Shown in pieces: positions 3,816 to 25,189 of a DNA stretch of 64,000 nt. The DNA comes from Anaerolinea sp. Lineage in GTDB: Bacteria; Chloroflexota; Anaerolineae; Anaerolineales; Villigracilaceae. Positions within the stretch are counted from its first letter, which is position 1, and every line of letters starts with the position of its first letter. The stretch is from assembly GCA_020723805.1 (NCBI GenBank), contig DYID01000006.1, positions 74,694-138,693 on the forward strand, written 5' to 3'. The notes under the pieces were generated by a model. The model saw only the letters and a list, made by a program, of their open reading frames with translations. It had not been told where the DNA came from and made no database searches. A program made the translations under genes and the position numbers.

Positions 3816-3884
3816 TTTGGTAATTGGTAAATGGTAATTACCACTTGCCAATTACCAATTACCATTTACTACTCACCAATCACC
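3816..3884. repeat. Heptamer-periodic inverted-repeat element (TAATTGG arm + CCAATTA arm), empty form
   Basis: tttggtaattggtaaatggtaatt followed by accacttgccaattaccaattaccatttac; starts immediately after the mmsA stop. Confidence 0.8.
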
Positions 3885-3899
3885 ATCTCTTGAGGAATT

Positions 3900-5255
3900 A
3901 TGACCTACGACAACGCACTCTCTTACGCAAACACTTGGCTCGACATCATCAAACAGGAGCGCTTCCCCGACGAGGCGCAAGCCAAATGGATCATCAACGA
4001 ATCCAAACACAACTTCGCCGAACACTTCAACCGCGGCTGGCTGGAATACCGCAAGTCGGTGACGGAGGCGGGCGACTGGGCGTCGGTGGAATGGTCGGGC
4101 AATGGCTCGGTCTTCACCGACGTGCTGGGGCGCAAATACATTGACTGGCTGGGCGGCTACGGCATGATGGACCTCGGCTGGGTTCATCCCGAAGTAGTCG
4201 AGGCGGTCATCGCGCAGGCAAAGCGCAGTCCCATGCCCTCGCAGGAATTGATTGACCCGCTGCGCGGCGTGCTTGCCAAACTTATGGCGGAAATCACGCC
4301 GGGCGATTTGAAGTACTCGTGGTTCGCCGCCAGCGGCACCGAAGCCATCGAAGCCGCCATCAAAATTGCCAAACTCTACACGGGCAAATCGGCGTTTATT
4401 GTGGCGGTCAAGGGCTTTCACGGCAAGACAATGGGCTCGCTCTCGATGATGGGCAAAGCCGATTACCGCGAACGCATGGGCGCGCTCTATGGCGGGCAGG
4501 TTTATCACGTGCCATTCGGCGATGCGGAGGCGGTGGAACGGCAGCTTGACATCTGCGAGAAGGTCGGCATCGGCGTGGCGGCGGTCATCTTCGAACCGAT
4601 TCAGGGCGAGGCGGGCGCGATTGTCCCGCCGGATGACTTCTGGTCCCGCATCCGCACCGCGACGAAGAAGCACGGGGTTTTGTTGATTGCGGATGAAGTG
4701 CAGACGGGTCTGGGGCGGACGGGGAAACTGTGGGGCGTGAATCACTGGGATGTCGTCCCCGACATCATCGCCACCGCCAAATCGCTCGGCGGCGGGGTGA
4801 TGCCCATCAGTGCGGTGACCACCACCGAGGAAATCTTCCAGCCGATGATGTACCCGAATCCGTTCATGCACACCACGACGACCGGCGGCGGCGCGTTAGC
4901 CTGCTCTGCCGCCATTGCCGCCATCCGCGTCACGCTTCGCGACCGACTTTGGGAGGGCGCGGCGGCGAAGGGCAGTTACCTCATCGAAAAAGTGAGCGAC
5001 CTGGCGGAGGAGTTTCCGCAAATCTACGAGAAGGTGACCGGCAAAGGCTTGCTCATCGGTCAGCACTTCCGTTCGCCGGCGCTCGGTTACAAGGTGGCGG
5101 CGGAGTTGTTCAAGCGCGGCGTGCTGGTGGCTGGCACGCTCACCAGTTCGCAAACCATCCGCATCGAGCCGCCGCTCATCATCACGCAGGCAGAAATTGA
5201 CGAAGGTTTGAACCGCCTGCGCGATGCGGTCGGCGCAGTGGCAAAGACATTGTGA
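3900..5255 (+). CDS. patA: Putrescine aminotransferase (class III PLP)
   Basis: The N-terminus (HFNRGWLEYRKSVT, DWLGGYG, SQELIDPLR) resembles PatA/YgjG; FHGKT, DEVQTG and the PLP lysine in AKSLGGG are present. Confidence 0.75.
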   Translation: MTYDNALSYANTWLDIIKQERFPDEAQAKWIINESKHNFAEHFNRGWLEYRKSVTEAGDWASVEWSGNGSVFTDVLGRKYIDWLGGYGMMDLGWVHPEVVEAVIAQAKRSPMPSQELIDPLRGVLAKLMAEITPGDLKYSWFAASGTEAIEAAIKIAKLYTGKSAFIVAVKGFHGKTMGSLSMMGKADYRERMGALYGGQVYHVPFGDAEAVERQLDICEKVGIGVAAVIFEPIQGEAGAIVPPDDFWSRIRTATKKHGVLLIADEVQTGLGRTGKLWGVNHWDVVPDIIATAKSLGGGVMPISAVTTTEEIFQPMMYPNPFMHTTTTGGGALACSAAIAAIRVTLRDRLWEGAAAKGSYLIEKVSDLAEEFPQIYEKVTGKGLLIGQHFRSPALGYKVAAELFKRGVLVAGTLTSSQTIRIEPPLIITQAEIDEGLNRLRDAVGAVAKTL

Positions 5256-5284
5256 CCCTCGCCCCTCATCCGAGGGGATGAGGG
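5256..5284. repeat. REP-like hairpin
   Basis: CCCTCATCC-GAGG-GGATGAGGG directly after the stop codon. Confidence 0.55.
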
Positions 5285-5289
5285 TAAAA

Positions 5290-5319
5290 TGTAGGATAAG
5301 TCTATAGACTTGTCCTACA
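5290..5319. repeat. GTAG-family REP-like palindrome
   Basis: TGTAGGATAAGTC-TATA-GACTTGTCCTACA. Confidence 0.65.
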
Positions 5320-5368
5320 ACATGTTCTACAAAAGACAGTATCAAATCCTATCCTGAGGAGAAGATAG

Positions 5369-6487
5369 ATGCGAAGTGAGTTTGCAGTCGAACTACGGGA
5401 TGTCGTAAAACAATTTGTCACACCAGAGGGGAATCTTTTGAACGCCGTGGATCATGTCACCATGCAGATCAAGAACGGCGAGTTCTTCTCGATGCTGGGT
5501 TCGTCGGGCTGCGGCAAGACCACCTCCCTGCGCATGATCGCCGGCTTCGAGTGGCCCACCGCGGGGGAGGTGTATATCGAGGGCAAGCCAATGGGGCATA
5601 CGCCGCCCTTCCAGCGCAAGGTCAATACCGTGTTTCAAAACTATGCGCTCTTCCAGCACATGACGGTCTATCAAAACGTGGCGTTTGGGTTGGAGATGGA
5701 AGGAGCGGACAAGAGCGAAATCGAAAAGCGCGTCAAACGCGCCCTGGAGATGGTTCAACTGACCGGCATGGAGCGGCGTAAACCCCGTCAGCTCTCCGGC
5801 GGGCAGCAGCAGCGCGTGGCGGTGGCGCGGGCGCTGGTCAAACTGCCGGATGTGCTGCTCCTCGACGAACCGCTTGGCGCGCTGGACTTGAAACTGCGCA
5901 AGGAAATGCAGTTGGAACTCAAGGCGCTCCAGAAGGAAGTTGGCATCACTTTTATCTATGTCACCCACGACCAGGAAGAAGCCCTCACCATGTCGGACCG
6001 CATTGCGGTGATGAGCAAGGGCAAGGTCATGCAAATGGGCACGCCGGTCGAAATCTACGAGCGCCCCGCCAACAAGTTCGTGGCAGACTTTATCGGCGAG
6101 TCGAATTTTCTGGATGGAAAGATCAAGTCCATTTCGGCGGATGAAGCGAGCGTCTTTGTCCCTGCCCTGAACGCCGAGTTGAGCGGTGTGCCGATGTCGA
6201 AGGATTTGGTCAACGGCGAAGAAGTCGTCATTTCCATCCGCCCGGAGAAGATCCGCATCGTGGAGTACGACGACGGGAAGGAAGGAATTTTCCGCGCAAA
6301 AATCATCAACTCCATCTACATCGGTTCCGATACGCATGTGTATCTCGACTGCAACGGGGTGCGGTTGAAGGTCATGGAACAGAACCGCATTTCCCGCCTC
6401 GACCCGTTCTCCTTCTATCACAAAGATCAGCAGGTCGGTGTGTACCTGATGCCGGAAAACACGCTGGTCTTGAAAAAGGAGGCGTGA
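5369..6487 (+). CDS. potA: Polyamine ABC transporter ATP-binding subunit
   Basis: Walker [24 protein letters not shown]-terminal TOBE region. Confidence 0.9.
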
Positions 6488-6488
6488 C

Positions 6489-8290: not shown

Positions 8291-8360
8291 AACTTGTTGT
8301 GAAAACCACGGCGAAGTCCGTGTGTTTCAAAAACCAAACAAATCTTCTAAGGAGGAAGAG

Positions 8361-9500: not shown

Positions 9501-9519
9501 TCGCCGCTTCTGACCTATC

Positions 9520-9557
9520 AAGCCGCCGATTGCGCCGCAGTCGGCGGCTTTTTGTTT
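9520..9557 (+). terminator. Intrinsic terminator after potD
   Basis: AAGCCGCCGA...TCGGCGGCTT stem followed by TTTGTTT. Confidence 0.8.
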
Positions 9558-9619
9558 CAGTCACCTGCGAAGGAAAATCAATGCGGTGGTTTTTATATTG
9601 ACGAAAAAGAATAAAAATA

Positions 9620-9648
9620 TTGAAATTTTTGAAAAATAGTGATAAAAT
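9620..9648 (+). promoter_or_regulatory. Sigma70-type promoter, probably giving a leaderless transcript
   Basis: TTGAAA(9620)-17 nt-TAAAAT(9643); ATG 9655 lies 6 nt downstream and there is no SD. Confidence 0.55.
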
Positions 9649-9654
9649 ATGGCT

Positions 9655-10122: not shown

Positions 10123-10222
10123 AGTCTCGAGTCTCATAGTCTGATGGAGTGATCGCTATAAGAAAGTGTTCGATAAGGCGATAAGACTATAAGACTATAA
10201 GACTATAAGACTATGAGACTAG
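10123..10222. repeat. 7/8-mer periodic inverted-repeat element
   Basis: Left arm agtctcgagtctcatagtct; right arm (ATAAGACT)x4 + ATGAGACT at 10181-10220. Confidence 0.75.
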
Positions 10223-10283
10223 TTGACTAACCCAAACTAACTCGCACAACGCGGGTTATAAAACAAACGGAGAAGAAAGGATC

Positions 10284-11760: not shown

Positions 11761-13662
11761 ATGCCATACGGTTACAATGGCAAAATTCTGCATGTGGATT
11801 TGACGAAGGGTGAATTGACGGTGGAGGAGCCGCCCGAGTCGTTCTATCGCAAGTATTTGGGCGGGAGCGCGATGGGTATGCATTACATCCTGCGCGACAT
11901 GCCCAAAGGCGCCGACCCGCTGGGACCTGAAAATGTGCTGACGCTGTTTACAGGCGTGACGACGGGCGCGCCGATCTCGGGTCAGAGCCGCCTGAACGCC
12001 AACGCCAAATCGCCCATCAGCGGCGGCATCGGCGACTCGCAAAGCGGCGGGTTTTTCCCTGCCGAGTTGAAGTTCGCAGGCTTCGACGGTATTGTGATTA
12101 AAGGCAAGTCGCCCAAGCCTGTGTATCTGGCGATTGTGGATGGCAAAGCCGAACTGCGCGACGCCTCGCATTTGATGGGAAAGATCACGGGGGAGGTGGA
12201 CGATATCCTTCACAAGGAAGTGGATCCGAAAGCCGAAATCCTTCAGCATGGTCCCGCCGCCGAAAAGGGCGTGCTGTTCTCGTCGCTGGTGAGCATGTCC
12301 AATCGCCACAACGGACGCACGGGCATGGGCTTGGTGATGGCTTCCAAGAATCTCAAGGCGGTTGTCGTGCGCGGGACGAAGAAGGTGGAGGTCGCCGACC
12401 CCAAGGCGCTGACCGAATTGAACCGCATCGGTCCCAAAGCCATCCCCGAAAACGGCGACATGGACGGGCTGGCAAAGTTCGGCACGGCGGTTGTGGTGTT
12501 GTTCAACAATACAATCGGCTGTCTGCCGACCCGTAACTACAACGAAGGTCAGTTCGAGGGGTGTGAAGCCATCAGCGGCGAGAAGATGGCAGAGACCATC
12601 CTCAAGGAACGTGATACTTGCTACGCCTGCGTGGTCAAGTGCAAGCGCGTGGTTGAGGTCAAGGAAGGGGCGTACAAGGTGGACCCGCGCTATGGCGGTC
12701 CCGAATACGAAACGCTCGGCACGTTCGGCTCGTATTGCGGCGTGAGCGATTTAGCGGCGGTCTCGCTGGCGAATCAAATCTGCAACGAGTACGGCGTGGA
12801 TACCATCGCCTGCGGCGCGACGATTGCCTTTGCGATGGAGTGCTACGAAAAGGGCATCATCACTAAAGAGCAGACCGACGGCATCGAATTGAAATTCGGT
12901 GACGCCGACGCAATGCTGGCGGCGTTGAACAAAATCGTCAAAGGCGAGGGCGAGCTCGGCAAAACGCTCGGCATGGGGTCGGAACGCGCGGCGAAGAAGT
13001 GGGGCAACGGCGCGGACGAGTGCCTCATCACGGTCAAGGGTGCAGAAGCGCCCGCGCACATGCCTCAGGCGAAGCGTTCGCTCGGTCTCATCTATGCGGT
13101 CAATCCGTTCGGCGCGGATCACCAATCCAGCGAACACGACCCCTACTACGAAGAAGGCGTTGGAGACTTCAACCTAAACCGCCTCAAGCAAATCGGACTT
13201 GGTTCGCCTCAGCCCGCCTACAGCCTCACGGAGGAAAAAGTCCGCTTCGCTTACGAGACCGAGGTCTTCTACTCCATGCTCGACTCGCTCGAACTCTGTC
13301 AGTTTGTCTGGGGTCCCACGTGGACGCTCTACGACGGCGAACAGACCGCCGCCATGCTGCGCGCGGTCACAGGCTGGGATGTAACCCTCGACGAATTGAT
13401 GGAAGTCGGACGCCGCCGCCTGAACCTCTTCCGCGTGTTCAACGCCCGCGAGGGATTCGGGCGCAAGGACGACAAACTGCCGAAGAAGTTCTTCAAACAA
13501 TTGCAGGGGACGGGTCCCACTGCTGGCTTCGCGCTGACTCACGAAGAGATTGATTCCGCCATAGACGCCTACTACAAGATGGCAGGCTGGACCGCCGACG
13601 GCGTGCCGACCGCCGAGACGCTCAAGAAACACGGCGTCGAGTGGGCGGCGGAGTATCTCTAG
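11761..13662 (+). CDS. aor: Aldehyde:ferredoxin oxidoreductase family protein (W/Mo-bis-pterin, AOR1)
   Basis: GYNGKILHVDL, AKSP..GG, GLVMASKNLKA, CYACVVKC [4Fe-4S] motif, PEYETL, CNEYGVD, FNAREG, DKLPKKF. Confidence 0.88.
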   Translation: MPYGYNGKILHVDLTKGELTVEEPPESFYRKYLGGSAMGMHYILRDMPKGADPLGPENVLTLFTGVTTGAPISGQSRLNANAKSPISGGIGDSQSGGFFPAELKFAGFDGIVIKGKSPKPVYLAIVDGKAELRDASHLMGKITGEVDDILHKEVDPKAEILQHGPAAEKGVLFSSLVSMSNRHNGRTGMGLVMASKNLKAVVVRGTKKVEVADPKALTELNRIGPKAIPENGDMDGLAKFGTAVVVLFNNTIGCLPTRNYNEGQFEGCEAISGEKMAETILKERDTCYACVVKCKRVVEVKEGAYKVDPRYGGPEYETLGTFGSYCGVSDLAAVSLANQICNEYGVDTIACGATIAFAMECYEKGIITKEQTDGIELKFGDADAMLAALNKIVKGEGELGKTLGMGSERAAKKWGNGADECLITVKGAEAPAHMPQAKRSLGLIYAVNPFGADHQSSEHDPYYEEGVGDFNLNRLKQIGLGSPQPAYSLTEEKVRFAYETEVFYSMLDSLELCQFVWGPTWTLYDGEQTAAMLRAVTGWDVTLDELMEVGRRRLNLFRVFNAREGFGRKDDKLPKKFFKQLQGTGPTAGFALTHEEIDSAIDAYYKMAGWTADGVPTAETLKKHGVEWAAEYL

Positions 13663-13683
13663 TAATTGGTAAATGGTAATTGG
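13662..13683. repeat. TAATTGG heptamer arm (left arm of the filled element)
   Basis: gtaattggtaaatggtaattgg; 20 nt are identical to 3820-3839. Confidence 0.8.
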
Positions 13684-13737: not shown

Positions 13738-14535
13738 ATGAATCGACCCTCGATAGACTCCCCCTTTCGCTCGTTGATTGGAATGGGCGAAATACAGGCG
13801 GTATACAAACAGGGGATGGCATCGAAACTTTCCAATGCTTTCGGGAGCCTGCTTTTTTTGCTGGCGGGCGGTTACGTTCTTTATTACGGCTTGAACTACA
13901 AGAATGTTTATCCCGACGTGGCAGCGACGAACACACCGTTTATCGTTGGATTTGCCTTGATCTTGATCGGGGCGGGTGGATACTGGGCGTGGACTCTCTT
14001 TTCACGTTGGAATGAGGTGGCTGTTCTTTACCAAAATGGCTTTGCCCATTTCAACGGACGCGACGTGACGAGCTTCCAATGGAATGACATTACTTCCATC
14101 ACTGCGAAAGTCACCCGCATGACGGTGTATCATTTCATTCCTGCTGGCACGATGCGAAAATATATTTTCGAAAGCCCTTCGGCGCGCTTGAAATTGGACG
14201 GGACGCTTTCAGGCGTGGACGAATTGGTGAACCAAATTCGCCAGAATGTTTTTCCAATTATGGTAAACCGCCTGTCACAGGAATTGAACGCTGGCAAGAC
14301 ACTCTCGTTTGGACCAATTTCAATCAGCAGAACCGAAGGCATTCGATCGAAAAATAAAAAATATGCCTGGGCGGATGTGGCGGGGCTGAGAGTGGTCAAC
14401 GGCATTCTGGAAGTCGTTCCAAAGAAGAAAGGATTGTTTGGCAGAATTAGTTCCGACATCGGTTTCATTCCCAATCTCGACATTCTTATTGCGCTCTCGA
14501 CAGACATGATCCGACAACACAATCAAAATTCATGA
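13738..14535 (+). CDS. Hypothetical membrane protein (two N-terminal TM helices plus a PH-like soluble domain; possibly DUF6585-like)
   Basis: 265-codon ORF that is AT-richer than its neighbours and has no recognisable catalytic motif. Confidence 0.6.
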   Translation: MNRPSIDSPFRSLIGMGEIQAVYKQGMASKLSNAFGSLLFLLAGGYVLYYGLNYKNVYPDVAATNTPFIVGFALILIGAGGYWAWTLFSRWNEVAVLYQNGFAHFNGRDVTSFQWNDITSITAKVTRMTVYHFIPAGTMRKYIFESPSARLKLDGTLSGVDELVNQIRQNVFPIMVNRLSQELNAGKTLSFGPISISRTEGIRSKNKKYAWADVAGLRVVNGILEVVPKKKGLFGRISSDIGFIPNLDILIALSTDMIRQHNQNS

Positions 14536-14541
14536 GTCTTG

Positions 14542-14568
14542 AATTACCAATTACCAATTACCAATTAC
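14542..14568. repeat. CCAATTA heptamer arm (right arm of the filled element)
   Basis: aattaccaattaccaattaccaattac; its reverse complement matches 13662-13683 at 21/22. Confidence 0.8.
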
Positions 14569-14586: not shown

Positions 14587-15870
14587 ATGACCAACTCCCT
14601 CTACACCGAAAACTTCCCCCACATGACTCCCGCGTGGAGCCGCATCTTCAACTTCGTCGCCGACCGCGCCGAAGGCTCCTACATCTACACCGACGACGGA
14701 CGCAAACTGCTCGACTTCACCTGCGGCATCGGCGTGACGAACACGGGTCACTGTCACCCGAAAGTCGTCGAAGCGATTCGCGAGCAGGCGGGGAACTTTA
14801 TCCACGCGCAGGCGAATCTCGTCATCCACAAGCCGATGCTGCAACTCATCGAAGAACTGCGCAAGATCGTCCCGCCTTCGATTGACAGTTTCTTCTTCGC
14901 CAACTCAGGCGCGGAGGCGCTGGAAAACGCGGTCAAGATTGCGAAGGTGGCGACGGGACGCCCGAACGTCATCGTCTTCAGCGGCTCGTTCCACGGGCGG
15001 ACTCATGCCACCATGGCGCTGACCACGTCCAAGACGATTTACCGCGCGGGCTTTGCGCCGCTCATGGCGGGCGTGTACGTCGCGCCGTTCCCCTATGCCT
15101 TCCAACTCAAAATGACGGAAGAGGAAGCCAGCCAATACGCGCTGGAGCAGTTGGAGCATCTGCTCGCCTCGCAGACCGCGCCGAAGGAAACCGCCGCCAT
15201 CATCCTTGAAACCGTTTTGGGGGAAGGCGGCTACATCGTCCCGCCCGCCTCGTTCATGAAGGGTCTGCGCGAGATTTGCGACAAGCACGGTATCTTGCTG
15301 GTCCTCGACGAAGTCCAATCGGGCTTTGGTCGCACGGGCAAATGGTTCGCCTTCGAGCATTTCGGCATCGTGCCAGACATCATGACGGTTGCGAAAGGAA
15401 TCGCTTCGGGCATGCCGCTCTCAGGCGTGTTCACCCGCACCGAAATCATGAAGAAACTCGACACAGGCTCCATCGGCGGGACGTATGGCGGGAACGCCGT
15501 CGCCTGCGCCGCGGGAGTCGCCACCATCCGCGCGATGCGGGAAGAGAAGATGCTCGAAAACGCCGCCGAGCGCGGCATCCAACTGATGACGGGACTCCGC
15601 AAATTGCAGGAGGAATATCCGCAAATTGGCGACGTGCGCGGACTGGGGCTGATGGTCGGCACCGAGTTTGTGGTGGATGGAAGCCAGGTAAAAGCCAAGC
15701 CGCTCGTCAAGGAAATCATCCACAAAGCGGAAGAGAAAGGCTTGCTCCTGCTTTCCTGCGGCACCTACGACAACACCGTCCGCTGGATCCCGCCGCTGAA
15801 TGTGACGAGCGGGCAGATCAATGATGGGCTGAATATTTTTAGCGAAGCGTTGAAGGAAACCATAAAATAA
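14587..15870 (+). CDS. gabT: 4-aminobutyrate aminotransferase-like class III aminotransferase
   Basis: DFTCGIGVTNTGH, NSGAEALENAVK, FHGRT, DEVQSGFGRTG, AKGIASG and GGTYGGN; start moved past the repeat to ATG 14587. Confidence 0.7.
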   Translation: MTNSLYTENFPHMTPAWSRIFNFVADRAEGSYIYTDDGRKLLDFTCGIGVTNTGHCHPKVVEAIREQAGNFIHAQANLVIHKPMLQLIEELRKIVPPSIDSFFFANSGAEALENAVKIAKVATGRPNVIVFSGSFHGRTHATMALTTSKTIYRAGFAPLMAGVYVAPFPYAFQLKMTEEEASQYALEQLEHLLASQTAPKETAAIILETVLGEGGYIVPPASFMKGLREICDKHGILLVLDEVQSGFGRTGKWFAFEHFGIVPDIMTVAKGIASGMPLSGVFTRTEIMKKLDTGSIGGTYGGNAVACAAGVATIRAMREEKMLENAAERGIQLMTGLRKLQEEYPQIGDVRGLGLMVGTEFVVDGSQVKAKPLVKEIIHKAEEKGLLLLSCGTYDNTVRWIPPLNVTSGQINDGLNIFSEALKETIK

Positions 15871-15918
15871 TCAAAGGTCAAAAGTCAAAAGTCCGACGTT
15901 CGACCTTTGACTTTCGAC
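15871..15918. repeat. Heptamer-periodic inverted-repeat element (TCAAAAG type), empty form
   Basis: tcaaagg tcaaaag tcaaaag / gacctttgactttcgac; begins right after the stop codon. Confidence 0.8.
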
Positions 15919-15932: not shown

Positions 15933-17291
15933 ATGTCAAACACTCTCGATAGAAACAAACTCACCCAACTCCTCCAGCAAGAAGAACAACTCTTCCACAA
16001 AACCCATCCCAAATCCTACGAACTCTACCAGCGGGCGCGCAAGTCGCTGCATGGCGGCGTGCCGATGCTGTGGATGATCCGCTGGGCAGGTTCGTTTCCC
16101 GTCTTCGTCAAAGAGGCGAAAGGCGCGCGCTTCACCGACGTGGACGGCAACTCCTACATTGACTTCTGCCTCGGCGACACGGGCGCGATGACAGGTCACA
16201 GCCCCGACGCGACCATTGAAGCCATCAATGAGCAGATTCAAAAAGGCATCACGCTCATGCTCCCCTATGAGGATGTCATCTGGGTCGGCGAAGAACTCCA
16301 GCGCCGTTTCGGTCTGCCCTATTGGCAGTTCGCCCTCACCGCCACCGACGCCAACCGCTTCGCCCTGCGCATGGCGCGCCTCATCACGGGTCGTCCCAAA
16401 ATCCTCGTCTTCAACTACTGCTATCACGGCTCGGTGGACGAGACCTTCATCTCGCTCGACGAAGAAGGCACGCCCATTCCGCGCCCCAACAACATGGGTC
16501 CGCAAATTGACCCGCGCCTCACCAGCAAGGTCATCGAGTTCAACGACGTTGCCGCGCTCGAAACCGCCCTCTCCGCCCGCGATGTCGCCGCGGTCCTCGC
16601 TGAACCCGCCATGACCAACATCGGCATCATCCACCCCGAACCCGGCTACCACGACGCGCTGCGGGAATTGACTCGCAAGTACGGGACCTATCTCATCATT
16701 GACGAGACTCATACCATCTGCGCGGGTCCCGGCGGATACACCGCCTCATTCGGACTTCAGCCTGATTTCCTGACCATCGGCAAGCCCCTCGCTGGAGGCG
16801 TCCCCGCCGCGGTCTATGGCTTCACCGAAGAAGTGAGCCGCGCCTTCGCCGCCAAACTCGCCATCAACGACGCCGACGTGGGCGGCATCGGCGGGACTCT
16901 GGCGGGCAACGCCCTCTCGGTCGCCGCGATGAAAGCCACCTTGCAAAACGTCCTGACCGAGGACTTTTACAAAAAAGCCATCGCCTTGCAGGAAAAATTC
17001 ACCGCAGGCGTGGAGGGCGTCATCAAGGAATTCAACCTGCCGTGGATTGTCAAACGTCTCGGCAACCGCTCCGAATACTGGTTCCGTCCCACGCCTCCGC
17101 GCAACGGTGGGGAAGCGCACGCCGCCGTGGACCCCGAACTCGACCGCTACATGCACCTCTTCGCCCTCAACCGCGGCATCCTCATGACCCCCTTCCACAA
17201 CATGGCGCTCATCTCCGCCGACACCACCGAAGCGGACGTGGATTACCACACGAAGGTGTTCCGCGAGGCGGTGGCGAGTTTGTTTGGATAG
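15933..17291 (+). CDS. Class III aminotransferase, glutamate-1-semialdehyde aminomutase-like subgroup, substrate unknown
   Basis: DVDGNSYIDFCLGD, YHG, IDETHT, PLP lysine in GKPLAGG, GGTLAGN. Confidence 0.75.
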   Translation: MSNTLDRNKLTQLLQQEEQLFHKTHPKSYELYQRARKSLHGGVPMLWMIRWAGSFPVFVKEAKGARFTDVDGNSYIDFCLGDTGAMTGHSPDATIEAINEQIQKGITLMLPYEDVIWVGEELQRRFGLPYWQFALTATDANRFALRMARLITGRPKILVFNYCYHGSVDETFISLDEEGTPIPRPNNMGPQIDPRLTSKVIEFNDVAALETALSARDVAAVLAEPAMTNIGIIHPEPGYHDALRELTRKYGTYLIIDETHTICAGPGGYTASFGLQPDFLTIGKPLAGGVPAAVYGFTEEVSRAFAAKLAINDADVGGIGGTLAGNALSVAAMKATLQNVLTEDFYKKAIALQEKFTAGVEGVIKEFNLPWIVKRLGNRSEYWFRPTPPRNGGEAHAAVDPELDRYMHLFALNRGILMTPFHNMALISADTTEADVDYHTKVFREAVASLFG

Positions 17292-17292
17292 A

Positions 17293-17359
17293 GTAGGTCG
17301 AAGGTCAAGAGTCGAAAGTCTACCTTGTGACCTTCGACCTTCGACCTTCGACTTTTGAC
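17293..17359. repeat. Heptamer-periodic inverted-repeat element (TCGAAGG type), empty form
   Basis: gtcgaaggtcaagagtcgaaagtc / gaccttcgaccttcgaccttcgacttttgac. Confidence 0.8.
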
Positions 17360-17375
17360 TCGTTTGGAGAGAAAC

Positions 17376-19103
17376 ATGACAGAACACACATCCCAAATCT
17401 GGCGCATCAACGCACGCACGCGTGAACTCAAGCGCGAACCCGTCCCCGCCTCCTGGCAGCGGCTTGGCGGGCGCGGACTCATCGCCCGCATCCTGCTCGA
17501 CGAAGTGGACGCGACGACCGCCCCCCTCGGCGCGGGGAACAAACTCATCTTCGCGCCCGGTCTGCTCGTCGGTCACATGCTCTCGTCCACCGACCGCATC
17601 TCCATCGGCGGCAAGTCTCCGCTCACGGGCGGAGTCAAGGAAGCCAACGCAGGCGGGCGGACTGGCTTGCACATGGCGACGATGGGCATCCACGCCCTCA
17701 TCATCGAAGACCAGCCTGCAGACGATTCGTTGTGGGTACTGCATCTCTCACTCAACGGCGCAAAATGGGAAAAAGCGGATGACTTGACAGGCTTGGGCGT
17801 GTACGCTTCCGCCGAAAAATTGCTCGCGCGTTACGGCGATAAAGTCGCCATCGCGCTTATCGGTCCCGGCGGCGAGATGCGGATGAAGTCGGCGGGCATC
17901 CAGAATCTCGACAAGGACAAAATCCCCTCGCGCATCGCGGCGCGCGGCGGACTCGGCGCGGTGATGGGCTCGAAGCGGATCAAAGCCATCGTGTTCGATA
18001 ATGCCGGTGGGCAGAAGCCGCCCATCGTGAGTCCCGAAGCGTTCAAGTCCGCGCAGAAGGATTACACCAAAGCGCTGATGGATCATCCGCAGACGAAAAC
18101 GTATCACGATTACGGCACCGCCGCGATGACGCAATTGACCCAGCGGTTTGCCGCGATCCCTGTCCGCAACTTTTCGCGCGGCACATTCGACGACGTGGAA
18201 AAGATCGGCGGGGAGGCGCTGCGCGAGTTTACGCTCACGCGCGGCAAACCATCCGATCCCTCGCACGCCTGCATGGCGGGATGCACCATCAAATGCTCGA
18301 ACGTGTTCGGCGGAGAGGATGGCAAGGTCATCGTTTCGCCGCTCGAATATGAAACCATCGGCTTGATGGGCTCGAACCTCGACATCAACTCGCTCGACAG
18401 CATCGGGCGGCTGAATTGGCAGGTCAACGACCTGGGACTCGACTCGATTGAAGTCGGCGCGGCGCTCGGCGTCGCGGCGGAGGCGGGCTTGATGAAGTGG
18501 GGGAGCGAAGGAGATGCACTGAGGCTGATCAATGAGATTCGTAACGGCACGGAACTGGGGCGCATCCTCGGCGACGGCGCGGTTGCCACAGGGAAGAAGT
18601 ACAACATCGAGCGCGTCCCCGCTGTGAAGGGACAGGCGATGTCCGCCTATGAACCGCGCTCCATCAAAGGCACGGGCGTGACCTATGCCACCACGCCGCA
18701 GGGCGCCGACCATACCTGCGGACTCACCATCCGCGCCCAAATCAACCACCTTGACCCGAACGTGCAAATCGAGGTCTCGCGCAACGCGCAGTTCAACATG
18801 GCGGGTTACGACACCCTCGGCGCGTGTATCTTCGCGGGCTTCGGCTACGCCGCGACTCCCGATGGTGTGGTGAAACGTCTGCTCGCGGCGCGCTACGGCT
18901 GGGACGACCTGCCCGACAACATCCTCCAGGAACTCGGCAAACAGACCATCAAAATGGAGCGCGAGTTCAACCGCCGCGCAGGGTTCACCGCCAAAGACGA
19001 CCGTCTCCCCGCATGGATGACGAAAGAGCCGCTGCCCGAAACCAACCACGTCTTCGACGTGAGCGAAGACGCGCTCGACCACATCTTCGATGGGATCGAA
19101 TAA
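17376..19103 (+). CDS. aor: Aldehyde:ferredoxin oxidoreductase family protein (AOR2)
   Basis: GGRGL, GKSPLTGGVKEANAGG, AARGGLGAVMGSKRIKA, HACMAGCTIKC, LEYET, DLGLDSI, FNRRAG. Confidence 0.88.
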   Translation: MTEHTSQIWRINARTRELKREPVPASWQRLGGRGLIARILLDEVDATTAPLGAGNKLIFAPGLLVGHMLSSTDRISIGGKSPLTGGVKEANAGGRTGLHMATMGIHALIIEDQPADDSLWVLHLSLNGAKWEKADDLTGLGVYASAEKLLARYGDKVAIALIGPGGEMRMKSAGIQNLDKDKIPSRIAARGGLGAVMGSKRIKAIVFDNAGGQKPPIVSPEAFKSAQKDYTKALMDHPQTKTYHDYGTAAMTQLTQRFAAIPVRNFSRGTFDDVEKIGGEALREFTLTRGKPSDPSHACMAGCTIKCSNVFGGEDGKVIVSPLEYETIGLMGSNLDINSLDSIGRLNWQVNDLGLDSIEVGAALGVAAEAGLMKWGSEGDALRLINEIRNGTELGRILGDGAVATGKKYNIERVPAVKGQAMSAYEPRSIKGTGVTYATTPQGADHTCGLTIRAQINHLDPNVQIEVSRNAQFNMAGYDTLGACIFAGFGYAATPDGVVKRLLAARYGWDDLPDNILQELGKQTIKMEREFNRRAGFTAKDDRLPAWMTKEPLPETNHVFDVSEDALDHIFDGIE

Positions 19104-19222: not shown

Positions 19223-19224
19223 AT

Positions 19225-19344: not shown

Positions 19345-19368
19345 ATTACCACTTACCAATTACCAACC
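19345..19368 (+). repeat. CCAATTA heptamer arm abutting a start codon
   Basis: attaccacttaccaattaccaacc-ATG. Confidence 0.65.
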
Positions 19369-20631
19369 ATGAACATCGCCATGCTCTCTTACCACACCTG
19401 CCCCCTCGCCACCCTTGGCGGCAAAGACACGGGCGGCATGAACGTCTACGTCCGTGATCTGACATGTCAACTTGGCAGAATGGGCATTCACGTGGACGTG
19501 TTCACGCGCTCGCAGGACGAACATGTCCCTCACGTCTTGCATGACCTCGGCTATGGCAACCGCGTCGTCCACGTCCCTGCGGGACCCGAAACGCCGCTTC
19601 CCAAAAAGGAACTGGCGGATTTCATCCCCCAATTTGTGGAAGGGGTGGATGCTTTCGCAAAAGAAAAAGGGATTCGCTACGACATCATCCACAGTCACTA
19701 CTGGATGAGCGGCATCGCCGCCGCTTCTCTCTCGGACCTCTGGGGCGGTACGCCCATCATTCACATGTTCCACACCCTGGGTGAGATGAAGAACCGCATC
19801 GCGCGGAGCGAAGAGGAACGCGAGGGTGCGTATCGGCTCGATGGGGAGAGGCAGGTCCTCCGTCGTGCGAACCGTGTCGTCGTCGCTACGCTGGCAGAGT
19901 TGACTCAGTTGCGCTTCCTCTACAAAGCGGATGTGTCCAGGATGGTCGTCATCCCGCCTGGCGTGGATTTGAGTCACTTCTATCCCATCCCGTCCGATGA
20001 GGCAAAGATGTATGTGGGGATCAAGCCCGAAGACCGCATGGTCCTGTTTGTGGGGCGCATCGAACCGCTCAAGGGTGTGGATACGCTCATCCAAGCCATG
20101 TGCTGTCTGACGTTGAAAGACAAAAGCCGTCCTGTGCATCTAGCAATCATTGGGGGTGACCCCTCTGCCAGCCCTGAGACGATGACGGCGGAAATGAAAC
20201 GCCTTCAGGCGTTGTGCGACGAACTTGCCGTGGGGCAGACAGTCGTATTTTTGGGGAAGCGCGATCAGGACAAATTGCCCTATTACTACTCGGCGGCGGA
20301 GGTGCTGGTGATGCCCTCCCATTACGAGTCGTTCGGTATGGTGGCGCTGGAAGCAATGGCATGCGGCACGCCGGTGATCGCTTCGGAAGTGGGCGGGCTG
20401 GCGTATCTGGTGCGCGATGGCGAGACGGGATTTACCATTCCCGCCGAAGAACCCGATACGTTGTGCGAGAAGATTTCGTGGCTGTTGAACGACAAGGAGT
20501 TACATGCGCGGATGAGCGCCCAGGCGGCAGAATATGCGCGGAATTATGCCTGGGAGAAGATTGCGGCTCAAATTGTGGATGAATATCAGAAACTGGCGGG
20601 GGGAGGGAAGTGTCCAATGTCGTGGGCTTAG
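19369..20631 (+). CDS. GT4 glycosyltransferase, MshA (D-inositol-3-phosphate glycosyltransferase)-like
   Basis: HTCPLATLGGKDTGGMNVYV, HSHYWMSG, FVGRIEPLKG and ESFGMVALEA resemble MshA. Confidence 0.75.
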   Translation: MNIAMLSYHTCPLATLGGKDTGGMNVYVRDLTCQLGRMGIHVDVFTRSQDEHVPHVLHDLGYGNRVVHVPAGPETPLPKKELADFIPQFVEGVDAFAKEKGIRYDIIHSHYWMSGIAAASLSDLWGGTPIIHMFHTLGEMKNRIARSEEEREGAYRLDGERQVLRRANRVVVATLAELTQLRFLYKADVSRMVVIPPGVDLSHFYPIPSDEAKMYVGIKPEDRMVLFVGRIEPLKGVDTLIQAMCCLTLKDKSRPVHLAIIGGDPSASPETMTAEMKRLQALCDELAVGQTVVFLGKRDQDKLPYYYSAAEVLVMPSHYESFGMVALEAMACGTPVIASEVGGLAYLVRDGETGFTIPAEEPDTLCEKISWLLNDKELHARMSAQAAEYARNYAWEKIAAQIVDEYQKLAGGGKCPMSWA

Positions 20632-20848
20632 CCACAGAGAACACAGTGATTTTGAGATTTTTTGGCTCTCCCGTTTCTGGCGGGATTATGCCTCGTGAGT
20701 AAGATTTTATGCCACGAATTTACACGGATTTTCACGAATTTTTAGACAATCCGTGTGAATTCGTGAAATCCGTGGCTAAGGGTTTTGGGCTTTCCCGTTA
20801 AAAACGGTAGAACCGATTTTTCTCAGAGATCTCTGTGATCTCTGTGGC
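20631..20848. repeat. Nested GCCAC-initiated 9-10-mer periodic inverted-repeat elements
   Basis: Outer arms 20631-20649 / 20830-20848 match at 17/19; inner arms 20711-20740 / 20749-20776. Confidence 0.75.
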
Positions 20849-20939
20849 AGAAAAATCTTTAGCCCATTCTTTTGACCTCCACTTTGGCAATATGACGTAA
20901 AATAGTGTTCCATTTTGGCTTCGAGAAGGAAATTACAGA

Positions 20940-21686
20940 ATGACGGCTGAGCGTTTGCAAAAAATACTCGCACAGGCGGGATATGGATCGCGCCGCGCCT
21001 GTGAGGATTTTATTACCGCCGGGCGGGTGCGCGTCAACGGGAAGATTGCCCAACTCGGGCAAAAAGCCGACCCGGCGATTGATTCAATTACGGTGGATGG
21101 CAAACCCATCGAAGCGGCGGAGCAACTGGTTTATATTGCCCTGCACAAGCCGCGCAACGTCCTTTCGACAGTGGATGCAGAACCAGGCGACGGACGCCGC
21201 ACCGTGCGCGACTTGGTGGACGTGCCGGAACATGTCCACCCGGTGGGCAGACTGGATTACGAAAGCGAAGGTCTGGTGCTGATGACCAATGATGGCGATC
21301 TGACGAACCGCCTCACACATCCGCGTTACGGGCATGAAAAAGAGTACCGCGTCCTGTTGGCGAAGCGTCCGGACCAGGAACAATTGGCGGCGTGGGGGAG
21401 AGGCGTTGTTCTCGAAGACGGATACAAGACAGCGCCGGTGGATGTCCGCTTGGAAACGACACAAGGCAAAGGCGCATGGGTGAGGGTCATCATGCAGGAG
21501 GGACGCAAGCGGCAAATCCGCGAGACCTGCAAACAACTCGGGCTTCCCGTGGTGCGCATTGTGCGCACCCGCATCGGAACCTTGCGCCTGGGTAATCTCA
21601 AGCCGCGTCAATGGCGGTATCTGACGAAAACCGAGATCGAAGAACTGAAAGCAGGCAAGGCATTAAATCAAAAGAACCGCCGTTGA
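20940..21686 (+). CDS. rluB: RsuA/RluB family rRNA pseudouridine synthase
   Basis: S4 domain (ERLQKILAQAGYGSRR), catalytic GRLD, EGRKRQIR. Confidence 0.8.
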   Translation: MTAERLQKILAQAGYGSRRACEDFITAGRVRVNGKIAQLGQKADPAIDSITVDGKPIEAAEQLVYIALHKPRNVLSTVDAEPGDGRRTVRDLVDVPEHVHPVGRLDYESEGLVLMTNDGDLTNRLTHPRYGHEKEYRVLLAKRPDQEQLAAWGRGVVLEDGYKTAPVDVRLETTQGKGAWVRVIMQEGRKRQIRETCKQLGLPVVRIVRTRIGTLRLGNLKPRQWRYLTKTEIEELKAGKALNQKNRR

Positions 21687-21702
21687 GGCGGTTCCTGTTT
21701 TT
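21672..21702. terminator. Bidirectional terminator between convergent genes
   Basis: GAACCGCC-GTTGA-GGCGGTTC with A-rich and T-rich flanks. Confidence 0.7.
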
Positions 21703-21713
21703 GAGTGTGCTGT

Positions 21714-22355: not shown

Positions 22356-22448
22356 GGTAACCTCCTAAGTGATTAAAGGGTGGAGTTCGCTAAAAAAATT
22401 ATACGATGGGTCGTTGGCGCGAGAGTCACGAAATTGGAGTGACTTAGG

Positions 22449-23807
22449 TCACTTTGCAAACTCCTTGATGACGCGCGCCATGTGACGGGCATGCTTGAGG
22501 TACAGGTCAATGCGGATGTTTTCGTTCGGGGCGTGGGCGCGGGTGTCGGGGTAACCCAAGCCGGCGGTCGCCACCGGCAGACCGAGGTCATGCACGAACG
22601 GATAGTTCGGACCCGAGCCTCCCACCATCGGGACAAGCTGCATCGGCTGTTCGTATACCTCCTCCGCCGCCTGCACCACGGTTCGGACGAAGGGGTGGTC
22701 TGGATCTGTCCGAGCGGCTGGTTCTCCGCCCAGGAATTTGATCTGCACATCCTCGAAGCCGTGCGCGTCGAGATGGGCGCGCAGTTTTTTGAGGATGTCC
22801 TCAGGCTTCTGATTGGGGACGAGGCGGAAGTCCACTTTGGCGGAGGCGAAGGCAGGCTGGACGGTCTTCGAGCCGGGTCCCTGGTAACCGCTGGTCAGAC
22901 CGCAGATGGTGCAGGTGGGCGTGAAGACTTCCTCCATCTTGAGGTCGGTGCCGCCCGTCAATCCCTTGATGAATTGCTTGACGCCGTAGCGGGTCTTGTA
23001 TTCCTCCGCCACGTCAGGCAGGGCGTCCATCAGTTCGCGGTCGCGCTCGCTGGGCGGGACGACATCATCGTAGAAGCCGGGAATGCGGATGCGTTCATCG
23101 GGTCCCTTCAGCGTGGATAACGCCCAAACGAGACGCCACGCCGCATTCGGGAAGATGGAACCGCCGAGTCCCGAATGCACGTCAATGCCGAGCGCTTCGA
23201 CAGAGAGTTCCACGTAGCAGATGCCGCGCAGTCCGAGGTATTGCATGGGCACGTCGCGGTGATCCACGCCGCCGAATTCCCAAATGCAGGCATCGGCTTT
23301 GAGTTTGTCTTTGTTGGCGCGGATGAAATCGTGCAGATGCACGCTGGAGGTTTCCTCCTCGCCCTCGATGATGAATTTGACGTTGCAGGGCAGTTCGCCT
23401 TCGGTCTCAAGGATGGAGTCAATGGCGTGCAGGCGCGAGACGATATGCCCCTTGTCGTCGCTCACGCCGCGTCCGTACATTTTGCCGTTGCGAATGGACG
23501 GTTCGAAGGGCGGCGTTTCCCACAGTTCGAGCGGTTCGGGCGGCTGAACGTCGTAGTGGTTGTAGAAGAGCAGCGTTTTATCGCTTTTCCCCTTGCGTTC
23601 GGCAAGGACAACGGGCGCGCCTTCGGTTTCGGCGATTTCAGCAGTGAAACCGCGCGCGCGGAGCATGTCCGCGACGAGGGCGGCGCATTCCTTCAAGCCG
23701 ACGCCCTGCGCGCTGATGCTGGGCTGCGCCACCAGCCTGCCGAGTTCGGCAAGGCTTTTGTCGAGGTTGGCTTCGAGGTAGGTGTCAATCTTTTGATATT
23801 CCGACAT
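22449..23807 (-). CDS. M20/M25/M40 family metallopeptidase (dipeptidase-like)
   Basis: YNHYDVQP, GRGVSDDKG, EGEEE, HAPNE. Confidence 0.88.
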   Translation of the reverse strand: MSEYQKIDTYLEANLDKSLAELGRLVAQPSISAQGVGLKECAALVADMLRARGFTAEIAETEGAPVVLAERKGKSDKTLLFYNHYDVQPPEPLELWETPPFEPSIRNGKMYGRGVSDDKGHIVSRLHAIDSILETEGELPCNVKFIIEGEEETSSVHLHDFIRANKDKLKADACIWEFGGVDHRDVPMQYLGLRGICYVELSVEALGIDVHSGLGGSIFPNAAWRLVWALSTLKGPDERIRIPGFYDDVVPPSERDRELMDALPDVAEEYKTRYGVKQFIKGLTGGTDLKMEEVFTPTCTICGLTSGYQGPGSKTVQPAFASAKVDFRLVPNQKPEDILKKLRAHLDAHGFEDVQIKFLGGEPAARTDPDHPFVRTVVQAAEEVYEQPMQLVPMVGGSGPNYPFVHDLGLPVATAGLGYPDTRAHAPNENIRIDLYLKHARHMARVIKEFAK

Positions 23808-23819
23808 GCTGTCTTCTCC

Positions 23820-24620
23820 TTATCGCATGAAATTGGTCAGCCATTCCAGGGAATAATACCCTGCCATTGCAAAGAAGAGCATTTTGATGATTTGCCCCGC
23901 CCATGTGAAGACCAGAAAGGTCTGCACCGGCAGTTTGACCATACCAGCCGCAATCCCCGCCACGTCGAAGAACGGGTTGGGAATAGCAGACAAGACGAAC
24001 ACCGCCCAGCCGCCGTATTTTTCCACCCAGGGGTGCAGGCGTTCGTAGATGTGCGTCCTTTCGACGATGGCTTGCCCGCTGAAGCCTGCCAGATAGCCGG
24101 AGAGTTCGCCGAGCGCGCCGCCCGTCCCTGCCGCCAGCCCCACCCAAAGCGGGTTGAACACCGCGCCCATCGCGTAAATGATGGCAACGCCCGGCGCGGG
24201 CAGGAGCACGGTCGCGTTTGCCATCAAAGCGATGATGAAAATGCCGGCATAGCCAAATCGCTCGAACTCCTCCACACGGCTGCGGATGCTGTAGATGTAG
24301 GCGGTAATCCCGATGACCGCCAGCAGGGCAAGCAGGCGCAGTAAATTGGTGGGGAGGGAGGTCTTCGCTTTTTCAGGCGGAACGGAAACGGGCAGCGCCG
24401 CCGCCATTTCCGCCGGGACGACGGCTGGAGCCGCCTGCGCCGCCGCTTTACGGACGCTTCTTTTCGCCCCGCTGCCTGCTTTTTGTGCCCCGGTTGTTTT
24501 CTCCGCTGCGGCTTTGGCGGGCTTCGCGGAGACGCGCGCAGAGCGCCCGGCAGGACGTTTCTTCTGCCCGGCGGCGGACGTTGTAGAGATCTTCTTATTC
24601 GCTTTCTTCGATGGTGACAC
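23820..24620 (-). CDS. DedA/VTT (SNARE-associated) family membrane protein with a basic N-terminal extension; start uncertain (GTG 24620 or ATG 24407)
   Basis: [29 protein letters not shown]. Confidence 0.8.
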
Positions 24621-25107
24621 GGGTAATCTTTACTGCGGGGGCATTGCGGTTGTTGGGGTCGCGCGGCGGGATGGACATAAGCACATCCAGTCCTTCCACG
24701 ACCTGACCAAAGACGCTGTGCTTGCCATCCAGCCAGGGGGTGGGGACGTGGGTGATGAAGAACTGGGAGCCGTTGGTGCCGGGTCCGGCATTTGCCATGG
24801 AGAGGACGCCTTGCTTGTCGTGGCGCAGGCTGGGGTGAAATTCGTCCTCGAAGCGGTAGCCGGGTCCGCCCATGCCGGTGCCGGTCGGGTCGCCGCCCTG
24901 CGCCATGAAGTTGGCAATGACGCGGTGGAAGATGACGCCGTCGTAAAAGCCTTCGCGCGAGAGGAAGACGAAGTTGTTCACGGTCTTGGGCGTTTTATCG
25001 GCAAAGAGTTCGATGACCATGGTGCCTTTGTCGGTCTCCATGAGCGCCTTGTATTTTTTCTTCGGGTCAATTTGCATGGCGGGCGGGGTGTTCCATTGTT
25101 TGGGCAT
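24595..25107 (-). CDS. ppiB: Cyclophilin-type peptidyl-prolyl isomerase
   Basis: [43 protein letters not shown]; GAGGAG RBS. Confidence 0.9.
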
Positions 25108-25142
25108 TGGAAATCTCCTCAAGGGGTAATTTGATTTCTGCT

Positions 25143-25189
25143 CACTTTCCACTTTTTACTTTGTGTGGAAGGTGAAAAGTAGAAAGTGG
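25143..25189. repeat. Heptamer-periodic inverted-repeat element (TRRAAAG type)
   Basis: cactttc cactttt tacttt / ggaagg tgaaaag tagaaag tgg lies between udk and ppiB. Confidence 0.7.

Follow-up and report, generated by a model that had tools for sequence, protein, structure and literature searches.

The 64,000-nt stretch of Anaerolinea sp. DNA analysed here (assembly GCA_020723805.1, contig DYID01000006.1, positions 74,694 to 138,693, or C26:74694-138693 in our numbering; hereafter the window) contains four hairpins in which an array of tandem 7-nt units is followed by its reverse-complement array just past a stop codon. Analysis of the whole assembly (3.69 Mb, 57% G+C, 54 contigs) and of related genomes showed that these four hairpins are not a special junction signal and are ordinary members of a genome-wide population. 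This population belongs to a lineage-wide set of short 7-nt (and 8-nt) arrays in an Anaerolineales genus, which is the Chloroflexota counterpart of the cyanobacterial short tandemly repeated repetitive (STRR) heptamers. A minority of the arrays, those paired with an inverted array, form hairpins of 15-30 bp. The population is dispersed and multi-family, with rapid unit-number change, gain, loss and replacement, and its members behave as invasive, fast-evolving DNA, not as conserved regulatory signals. Stems of the same build are specifically associated with PF05635 (S23p / Avd-like) genes, and their arms stay complementary as the unit changes. On balance, and with some reservation, we favour the reading that the sites are invasive stems resembling STRRs and repetitive extragenic palindromic (REP) elements, filtered by selection, and probably belong to the gene-less majority of a stem-element family akin to intervening sequences.

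Four heptamer hairpins follow stop codons in the window

The hairpins were identified by direct reading, Tandem Repeats Finder (TRF), an inverted-repeat finder and folding, with minimum free energy (MFE) and z-scores against shuffles. All four inverted heptamer arrays of a preliminary description of this DNA were recovered at their sites, with period 7 reported by TRF at each, and their RNA stems were predicted to have energies of -16 to -38 kcal/mol (z -3.5 to -4.9). Hairpin 1, on the plus strand, consists of a G-rich arm of TTGGTAA/TAATTGG units (x3.3, 3816..3839) and a C-rich arm of AATTACC-type units (3840..3885), both found by all these means, with an MFE of -25.7 kcal/mol and z of -4.9. 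It begins +1 nt past the TAA stop (3813-3815) of an aldehyde dehydrogenase gene (2349-3815) and ends 15 nt before the ATG at 3900 of a class-III aminotransferase gene. Hairpin 2 (15871..15918, plus strand; MFE -16.2, z -4.3) has a TCAAAGG/TCAAAAG arm (x3.3), an 8-nt loop and a GACCTTT/GACTTTC arm (GACCTTTGACTTTCGAC). It is flanked by two class-III aminotransferase genes (stop 15868-15870, ATG 15933), and again starts +1 nt after the stop.

Hairpin 3 (17293..17359, plus strand; MFE -38.4, z -4.8) is built of a GTCGAAG-type arm, a loop and a GACCTTC arm (x3.4). It lies +2 nt from an aminotransferase stop (17289-17291) and is followed by an aldehyde:ferredoxin oxidoreductase gene (GGAG at 17365, ATG at 17376). 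Hairpin 4 (25143..25190, minus strand) has its pyrimidine-rich, CACTTTC-type arm first and then a GAAAGTG-type arm, with an MFE of -22.5 on the gene strand and z of -3.5; its onset is 8-9 nt past the stop of a uridine-kinase-family gene (udk), also on the minus strand. The measured onsets of +1, +1, +2 and 8-9 nt agree well with the earlier estimate of 0-2 nt from a stop and about 10 nt at udk. The distance from the last arm to the next ATG was 15-17 nt at hairpins 1-3 and about 36 nt at hairpin 4.

An intrinsic (Rho-independent) terminator was considered for these sites and rejected on the basis of the A/T-rich stems, the lack of a following T-run and the position of the next start 15-17 nt downstream within the operon. 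Within the window, three tRNAs were the sole matches to Rfam 15 at gathering score, and the hairpins match no RNA family. No conserved tag (GTAG or CGTC) was found at either end of the four hairpins.

Tandem arrays form a genome-wide population at tight operon junctions

In the whole genome, TRF reported 751 rows of period 7 compared with 174 of period 6 and 268 of period 8. The main period-7 families were AATTACC (165), ACTGATC (61), AAAGAGG (46) and AAAGTGG (44), followed by AAAGAAG (27), AAATCGC (20), AAGGTCG (18) and AAAGTCG (16); period-8 unit families are present too. The common T-N-R-W-W-R-G frame once suggested for the units was not borne out, since the major families CAGTGAT and AAATCGC do not fit it. 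A strict detector found 302 period-7 arrays (281 without N runs) versus 4 in shuffled sequence, and a loose definition raised the number to about 660. An inverted partner lay within 60 nt of only 56 of the 281 strict arrays, the paired fraction being about a fifth to a third overall, so that the hairpin is a minority form of what is basically a tandem array.

A looser hairpin search around the TRF arrays yielded 134 period-7 and 57 period-8 hairpins. Several units hold a 4-nt palindrome (AATT, GATC or TCGA) at which the arms switch strand without any loop; one such loop-free sequence, GGTAATTACC, occurs 23 times. Higher-order structure was also shared between sites: the 19-nt motif TAATTGG-TAAATGG-TAATT occurred 17 times, compared with 5 and 3 occurrences for other placements of the variant unit, and it is common to the arm of an S23p gene, the arm before a DUF6585 gene and the hairpin at 3816.

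The position of these elements relative to genes was strongly skewed. Strict arrays that were intergenic or overlapped a gene end numbered 153 in co-directional, 11 in convergent and 7 in divergent spacers, which account for 63%, 11% and 26% of spacer base pairs, respectively. Among period-7 hairpins, 102 were co-directional, 21 intragenic, 10 convergent and none divergent; the corresponding numbers for period-8 hairpins were 33, 4, 7 and 13. As a caution, with the loose TRF definition (period 7 or 8) the share of spacers that hold an array is 17% for co-directional, 14.5% for divergent and 13% for convergent ones.

For the 102 co-directional period-7 hairpins, the median distance from stop to stem was 3.5 nt (interquartile range -2 to 10) and that from stem to start was 19.5 nt (14 to 39), with 83 hairpins closer to the stop and 18 closer to the start. 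The stop-proximal placement first seen at a few junctions therefore holds across the genome. The residual spacer without the element had a median of 23 nt, showing that these sites are tight operon junctions. Array orientation relative to transcription revealed no clear bias (for AATTACC, 26 in the same and 18 in the opposite direction).

Selection at the RNA level was examined through stem mismatches, G·U pairs being compared with A·C pairs on the sense strand; stems retained for their RNA fold would be expected to favour G·U. The result was negative and indeed reversed: co-directional stems carried 63 G·U-type versus 91 A·C-type mismatches on the mRNA strand, and stems within genes 8 versus 24. 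This A·C excess on the mRNA-sense strand is a strand asymmetry. A gene for RNase III is present in the genome.

Arrays occur in frame within conserved proteins

Of 106 strict arrays lying wholly within called genes, 77 were in genes with strong coding scores and 150 nt or more away from either end. Clear in-frame cases, some of which are hairpins, were found in glycerol kinase (GlpK), HypF, a FAD-linked oxidase, an ABC permease and an oxidoreductase with two inserts. All 37 AATTACC arrays within genes lie in the stop-free orientation, and both orientations occur between genes, which suggests a selection filter acting on something that can land anywhere. Array length modulo 3 within genes was uninformative because array boundaries are fuzzy.

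The GlpK case was followed through the relatives. A 32-aa insert (SERSSVSSNQSSVISEQ..., a CAGTGAG array) is missing from six relatives at 78-83% identity. In the same loop of 19 same-genus genomes, the CAGTGAG array has 16 units here, 7 in G066 and 4 in G008 and G065. Seven genomes (G070, G069, G105, G061, G078, G045 and G038; loci L183, L191, L195, L197, L187, L192 and L193) carry in this loop an unrelated in-frame REP hairpin, GCGGACTTAAGTCCGC, read as ERGLKSA or ERGLQS, and in four of the seven GlpK length is unchanged. G006, G010 and others show the basal 40-aa state. The array in the present genome displaces about six native codons, which do not resemble the unit. No target-site duplication was seen at GlpK or at the junction sites when they were compared with empty sites in relatives. 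The same protein (G000 C1:35046-36695) has a second insert of about 23 aa (GRAGGGVSIREERYSTTTAVPKLDAF) at aa ~256-280, likewise missing from six relatives.

Unit family and copy number turn over rapidly between relatives

The unit family and its copy number differ between species only 3-10% apart, and the gene order of the operon around hairpins 2 and 3 is kept across the genus. Junction states, classified by eye, were scored at the hairpin-2 site in 34 species. A TCRAARG heptamer hairpin is present in about 8 of them, an ACAGGTAN 8-mer hairpin in about 10 and an AACGTT/AAGGTTGG 8-mer hairpin in about 7; the rest comprise one GACCGCC heptamer hairpin, one solo CCACTTT array touching the ATG, four other hairpins and three empty spacers of 17-30 nt. 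Some periodic array or hairpin is present in 27 of the 34 species. Despite these different families, every hairpin at this junction has its start 0-5 nt past the conserved stop and its end 11-16 nt upstream of the ATG. The first array unit is matched by the stop codon and adjacent bases in some relatives, and a compensatory variant, TCGAATG/CATTCGA, was found in G062 and G044. On a tree of the downstream gene, at least 17 changes of state were needed among 36 taxa; the first five of 200 label shuffles gave 20-23, indicating almost no phylogenetic signal.

Similar variation was seen at the other sites. At the hairpin-3 junction, a heptamer hairpin of the same family is found in G086, G004 and G018; in other genomes the spacer is empty and 9 nt long or is occupied by 8-mer hairpins, G+C-rich hairpins or a toxin-antitoxin cassette. 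One arm of hairpin 1 has 1.4 units in G010 compared with 3.3 here, and the hairpin-4 site of G006 holds a CTTCTTT/AAAGACA hairpin. With up to one mismatch allowed, (CCAATTA)3 was counted 113 times here, 52 in G006, 28 in G010 and 0-24 times in the remaining genomes of the genus that were searched. Most genomes from other families of the order had none, with a maximum of 13, and a reversed control pattern gave 0 everywhere.

The cassette at the hairpin-3 junction is an observation of its own. In about 15 genomes, at the equivalent of window position 17292 (loci L091, L092, L112, L116, L118, L119, L123, L125-L128, L138, L143 and L144), a toxin-antitoxin-like cassette of two small genes starts with GTGATGTATAATGTGATGTATA; the proteins are putatively of ribbon-helix-helix and PIN type, as read from their translations only. 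In many genomes the first bases of the cassette supply the TGA stop of the aminotransferase gene.

Periodic stems enclose PF05635 genes

The association with a small protein family, which had been suggested as a check on these elements, was found for PF05635. The genome has six matches, and all six lie between an upstream G-rich arm and a complementary C-rich arm; in at least five cases the arms are periodic. The G-rich arm runs from the stop of the preceding gene into a terminal GGAGG-like ribosome-binding site, and the C-rich arm begins at the stop of the S23p gene itself. Six arm families are involved, CAGTGAT, TAATTGG, AAGGATG, AAAATCT/AAATCGC, TAGGAGA and AGCCAAAGG, and the six proteins are mutually only 22-44% identical. 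As background, periodic inverted flanks were seen at only about 30 of some 3200 genes, many of these merely sitting between two complete hairpins. No match to a solved structure was obtained by sequence for the S23p protein encoded on C17, the TAATTGG-armed copy.

Copies related to this C17 gene were detected in 20 of 60 relatives, down to 39% identity, and periodic inverted arms with the G-rich arm upstream surround 19 of the 20; the remaining one, in G030 (39% identity), is ambiguous. The arm unit varies by lineage: TAATTGG in seven genomes, RGAGAATT in five, and GAGATTG, GAGACTG, ATGACYA or GGCTGGGT in others. Most of these copies sit at one conserved locus, and those of this genome, G010 and G036 at another. 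Because the unit changes and the arms still remain complementary, the hairpins without a gene most probably represent the gene-less majority of an intervening-sequence-like family.

The abundance of a family was related to the resident gene. The CCAATTA load was higher in genomes with the C17 gene (Mann-Whitney p = 1e-4 across 61 genomes and 0.018 within the genus, not phylogenetically corrected), and at least five CCAATTA copies were present in 11 of 21 genomes with the gene versus 3 of 40 without it. In G012 the only (CCAATTA)3 match is the arm of the C17-related S23p gene. The RGAGAATT 8-mer family reaches 32-229 copies in all five genomes whose S23p gene has RGAGAATT arms, versus 1 here; it is also abundant in some genomes without such arms on the C17-related gene.

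Each of the 15 same-genus genomes examined has 3-11 PF05635 genes, and just one of the 14 control genomes has any. A crude automatic detector recognised periodic inverted arms at 16 or more of 30 sampled same-genus PF05635 loci, one of which, in G001, has GTCGAAG/CTTCGAC arms of the TCRAARG type, as found in hairpins 2 and 3. In polarity the gene-less hairpins agree with the S23p stems, with the purine-rich arm first in 79 versus 33 period-7 and 42 versus 6 period-8 hairpins. The 23S rRNA gene of this genome (C20:112247-115214) is 2968 nt long versus 2925 model positions and is without a large insert or intervening sequence.

The four flagged hairpins carry no ORF, and in the window TAATTGG/CCAATTA arms enclose the DUF6585 gene (13783..14535, plus strand). 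A TAATTGG-TAAATGG-TAATTGG arm (13662..13683, plus strand) starts at the stop of the first aldehyde:ferredoxin oxidoreductase gene, and its complement, a perfect AATTACC arm (x3.9; 14542..14568, plus strand), ends 18 nt before the ATG at 14587, so that the two arms make one split hairpin with the gene in its 'loop'. The 21-nt motif of the 13662 arm is identical in the arm of the PF05635 gene at C17:29739. This junction is without DUF6585 in all three relatives compared, and at the equivalent junction of G010 a PF05635 (small four-helix-bundle) gene lies within a non-periodic inverted repeat. Multi-copy cargo was considered and rejected: DUF6585 has a single gene copy, and so does the small membrane protein encoded between CCAATTA arrays.

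Origin of the hairpins and rival explanations

The reading that we favour, invasive stems filtered by selection, involves several steps. Gain and loss of units were observed, and replication slippage would be their likely cause. The two arms change together, possibly through template switching at the internal 4-nt palindromes (AATT, GATC, TCGA), and new copies of a family appear at new sites. Selection would then keep only harmless copies, that is, those in the few nucleotides between a stop and the next ribosome-binding region in tight operons, as well as copies in permissive protein loops in the stop-free orientation. The filter itself is visible in the intragenic orientation and in the placement just past the stop; judged from this distribution, it would yield the 'stop-to-start junction' pattern. 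Once transcribed, the elements would form long stems that RNase III could plausibly cleave, as it does in rRNA intervening sequences; severing or insulation of polycistronic mRNA may be a side effect.

Two readings had been offered at the outset. The 'footprints of a mobile cassette mechanism' proved the better supported, in that turnover and family change, in-frame copies and split arms enclosing genes all speak for it. For stems that process or tune polycistronic mRNA, the other proposal, the support is weaker. In its strongest form, that proposal makes the hairpins dedicated intercistronic RNA elements, the stem after the stop being kept for mRNA stability, for separation of cistrons by RNase III or for tuning of termination and re-initiation, as with enterobacterial REP. 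We regard this as unlikely, and it has points in its favour: 83 of 101 hairpins are closer to the stop in spacers with a residual median of only 23 nt, that is, at tight operon junctions; period-7 hairpins are found in 102 co-directional and 10 convergent spacers and in no divergent one; 27 of 34 species have an array or hairpin at the inter-aminotransferase junction despite the family differences; and the stems are stable, RNase III is present, and the TCGAATG/CATTCGA variant of G062 and G044 is compensatory. What tells against it is the lack of G·U tolerance on the mRNA strand (63 vs 91, and 8 vs 24 within genes), the roughly 100 arrays and 21 hairpins within coding sequence, the empty 9-30-nt junctions in several species, a per-genome (CCAATTA)3 load that ranges from 0 to 113, about 17 replacements of the family on the 36-taxon tree, and the fact that most arrays are solo and unable to fold.

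Two further explanations concern how the arrays arise, and both seem improbable to us. If they were plain microsatellites, made in place by replication slippage that favours the heptamer size, without dispersal or a link to genes, then the variable unit number between orthologous sites would be accounted for, as would the relatives in which the stop codon and its neighbours fit the first array unit; heptameric simple repeats are also reported as overrepresented in many bacteria (PMC4692102, citing Mrazek 2007). Slippage in place does not fit with one unit at more than 100 loci, with the higher-order TAATTGG-TAAATGG-TAATT arrangement found 17 times, with a GlpK array that replaces native codons unlike the unit, with the common intact in-frame arrays in spite of a 7-nt step that would shift the frame, or with a family abundance that tracks the arm type of the resident S23p gene. 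The alternative, in which REP-associated tyrosine transposases (RAYT, Y1 family) act on single-stranded hairpins and so move REPIN-like miniature elements, draws on the seven Y1_Tnp homologues in the genome, on a REP-like distribution (after stops, in co-directional spacers and within ORFs; cf. PMC3733652) and on two Y1 genes with ACTGATC arrays 100-300 nt downstream. Those ACTGATC arrays, however, adjoin the end of a separate miniature inverted-repeat transposable element (MITE) or insertion sequence (IS) with ACTTACGCA ends. Moreover, none of the Y1 genes has TAATTGG, TCRAARG or AAAGTGG arrays at its flanks, five of them being bordered by non-periodic REP hairpins of their own, and these three families are without a GTAG or CGTC tag, which leaves this explanation with little probability.

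Several points also weigh against invasive stems filtered by selection, and they are gathered here. The strong concentration of hairpins at tight operon junctions and the occupancy of one junction in 27 of 34 species are not easily predicted by pure 'tolerated junk' and fit a selected function or a targeted insertion process. None of the 134 period-7 hairpins lies in a divergent spacer, although arrays under the loose TRF definition occur in every spacer class. The TCRAARG, AAAGTGG and AAAGAGG families, which account for three of the four flagged sites, have no S23p-bearing copy in this genome, and many hairpins are loop-free (GGTAATTACC) and hence not simple deletion products of a gene-bearing copy. 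Neither a mobilising enzyme nor a target-site duplication nor a transposition intermediate was found. For PF05635 no catalytic activity is known, so that the gene may be a passenger or one that enters hairpin loops rather than a partner. Finally, gene coordinates came from our own crude codon-usage gene caller (3319 genes, 88% of the genome), and the genomes are metagenome-assembled, a setting in which repeats are under-assembled.

A wider proposal is put forward more tentatively. S23p / Avd-like four-helix-bundle proteins may be dedicated partners of 7-8-nt tandem-repeat stems, each paralogue binding, maintaining or helping to copy its own stem family in a RAYT-like manner, and the gene-less Anaerolineae hairpins, the cyanobacterial STRRs and the S23p-bearing rRNA intervening sequences could then form one unrecognised class of protein plus stem. 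Heptamer repeats and PF05635, a widespread protein family without a known role, meet here, and the protein with its cognate stem makes a testable pair. In the genus, every S23p gene examined in detail lies within a periodic stem, and family abundance tracks the resident gene. Gene ends are rewritten by the elements, and core enzymes (GlpK, HypF) acquire peptide repeats from them. Because arrays are read as open frames, they mislead gene callers, and the elements break metagenome assemblies. If the stems are RNase III sites, they would represent a widespread and fast-evolving means of cutting operon transcripts.

Comparison with known repeat systems

The likeness to cyanobacterial STRR heptamers, pointed out in the preliminary description, is apt. 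Heterocystous cyanobacteria reportedly have the STRR units CCCCAGT, TTGGTCA and CAACAGT, described by Mazel et al. in 1990. To our knowledge, STRR heptamers have been known since that year without a mechanism or function, and we know of no description of inverted-array hairpins, in-frame copies or PF05635 enclosure for them. In both systems tandem 7-nt units make up several families per genome, with many dispersed copies that are often in operon spacers, and the units TTGGTAA here versus TTGGTCA, and CAGT-core units here versus CAACAGT, are similar without being identical. The host here, however, belongs to the Anaerolineales of the Chloroflexota (the GlpK relatives likewise) and is not a heterocystous cyanobacterium, and the inverted-array hairpins, in-frame copies in conserved proteins and PF05635 enclosure set the present elements apart. 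Three heptanucleotide repeats are recorded for Calothrix PCC 7601 (PMC4692102). The heptamer repeats GGGAATC of Xanthomonas and GGGGA(C/T)T of Nostoc are G-rich and quadruplex-forming (Rehm et al. 2015, PMC4692102). They share with ours an intergenic position, a length that varies between close species and some inverted pairs that are potential stem-loops; the units here differ in being mostly A/T-rich without G runs, in falling into many unrelated families and in their stop-adjacent habit.

REP elements supply stop codons, favour co-directional and convergent spacers and occur within ORFs (PMC3733652). The REP, bacterial interspersed mosaic element (BIME) and REPIN group (PMC3733652, PMC3116915) resembles the present elements as short palindromes after stops, sometimes supplying the stop and sometimes in frame within ORFs, with a variable load per genome and several coexisting families; the bias of that group toward transcribed extragenic co-directional and convergent positions is seen here as well. 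In contrast, the arms here are tandem repeats and not a fixed sequence of 20-40 nt, they lack the GTAG/CGTC tag, and the RAYT-like genes are flanked by other REPs, not by the heptamer families. Rickettsia palindromic elements (RPE), mentioned in PMC3733652, are likewise palindromic repeats in frame within conserved protein genes and translated; an RPE is a fixed-sequence unit of 100-150 bp, whereas the elements here are arrays of 7-nt units in variable number.

Intervening sequences are cut out by RNase III, and the PF05635 family (23S_rRNA_IVP) is uncharacterised and resembles Avd of diversity-generating retroelements (DGR) (PMC11270868, PMC10053308). The S23p-bearing intervening sequences of 23S rRNA agree with the elements described here in having two inverted flanks that give a long stem with a PF05635 gene in its loop, and in a sporadic distribution that suggests mobility. 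They differ in position, since the present elements lie between protein-coding genes and not in rRNA, and in build, as the stems here consist of 7-8-nt repeats and most copies are gene-less. A limited literature search found no published description of heptamer hairpins in Chloroflexota or of PF05635 enclosure by them.

Solo arrays and other features

Solo CCAATTA arms, all on the plus strand, were confirmed at four sites of the window. Those at 1948..1968 and, of CCAATTA type, at 19345..19366 abut the ATG of a small membrane-protein gene (1971) and of a GT4 glycosyltransferase gene (19369), respectively, in both cases without a Shine-Dalgarno motif, as had been described. The array at 2311..2330 lies between a stop at 2306 and the aldehyde dehydrogenase start at 2349, and a short one of 2.1 units (56445..56459) follows a stop codon and is itself followed by a terminator-like hairpin. 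The position of the 1948 array is conserved in G010. The 2311 array is missing there, with another REP-like hairpin instead, and the 19345 array is missing from G006 and G014. An array of the related period-8 class (ATAAGACT x6; 10173..10229, plus strand) in a spacer is also missing from G010.

A MITE identity of the heptamer elements was rejected, since no target-site duplication was seen versus empty sites and no cognate transposase was found. The genome does carry a MITE of about 130 bp and longer IS-like elements, with ACAGKACTTACGCA ends, at 36 G000 sites, several of them at contig ends (for example C23:27513/27625, C11:99296/99408 and C53:77328/77440). About 11 of these ends directly adjoin CAGT-type heptamer arrays, so that the arrays may be insertion targets or the element ends may seed arrays. 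The five Y1 (RAYT-like) genes with their own REPs are located at G000 C35:13247-13882, C27:70878-71498, C9:13338-13874, C1:69560-70177 and C5:177891-178355; the flanking REP hairpins, for example GTAGTGCGACATTAATGTCGCACTAC and GCGGACTTMAGTCCGC, show the classical REPtron layout alongside the heptamer families.

Past the glycosyltransferase stop, the block at 20631-20940 of the window contains a hairpin with arms of 9-10-nt period (CACGAATTTT-type, 20713-20765) nested in outer repeats, and the entire block is missing from G006. At 70-1945 the window carries a restriction-modification methylase gene with Eco57I/TaqI-type domains.

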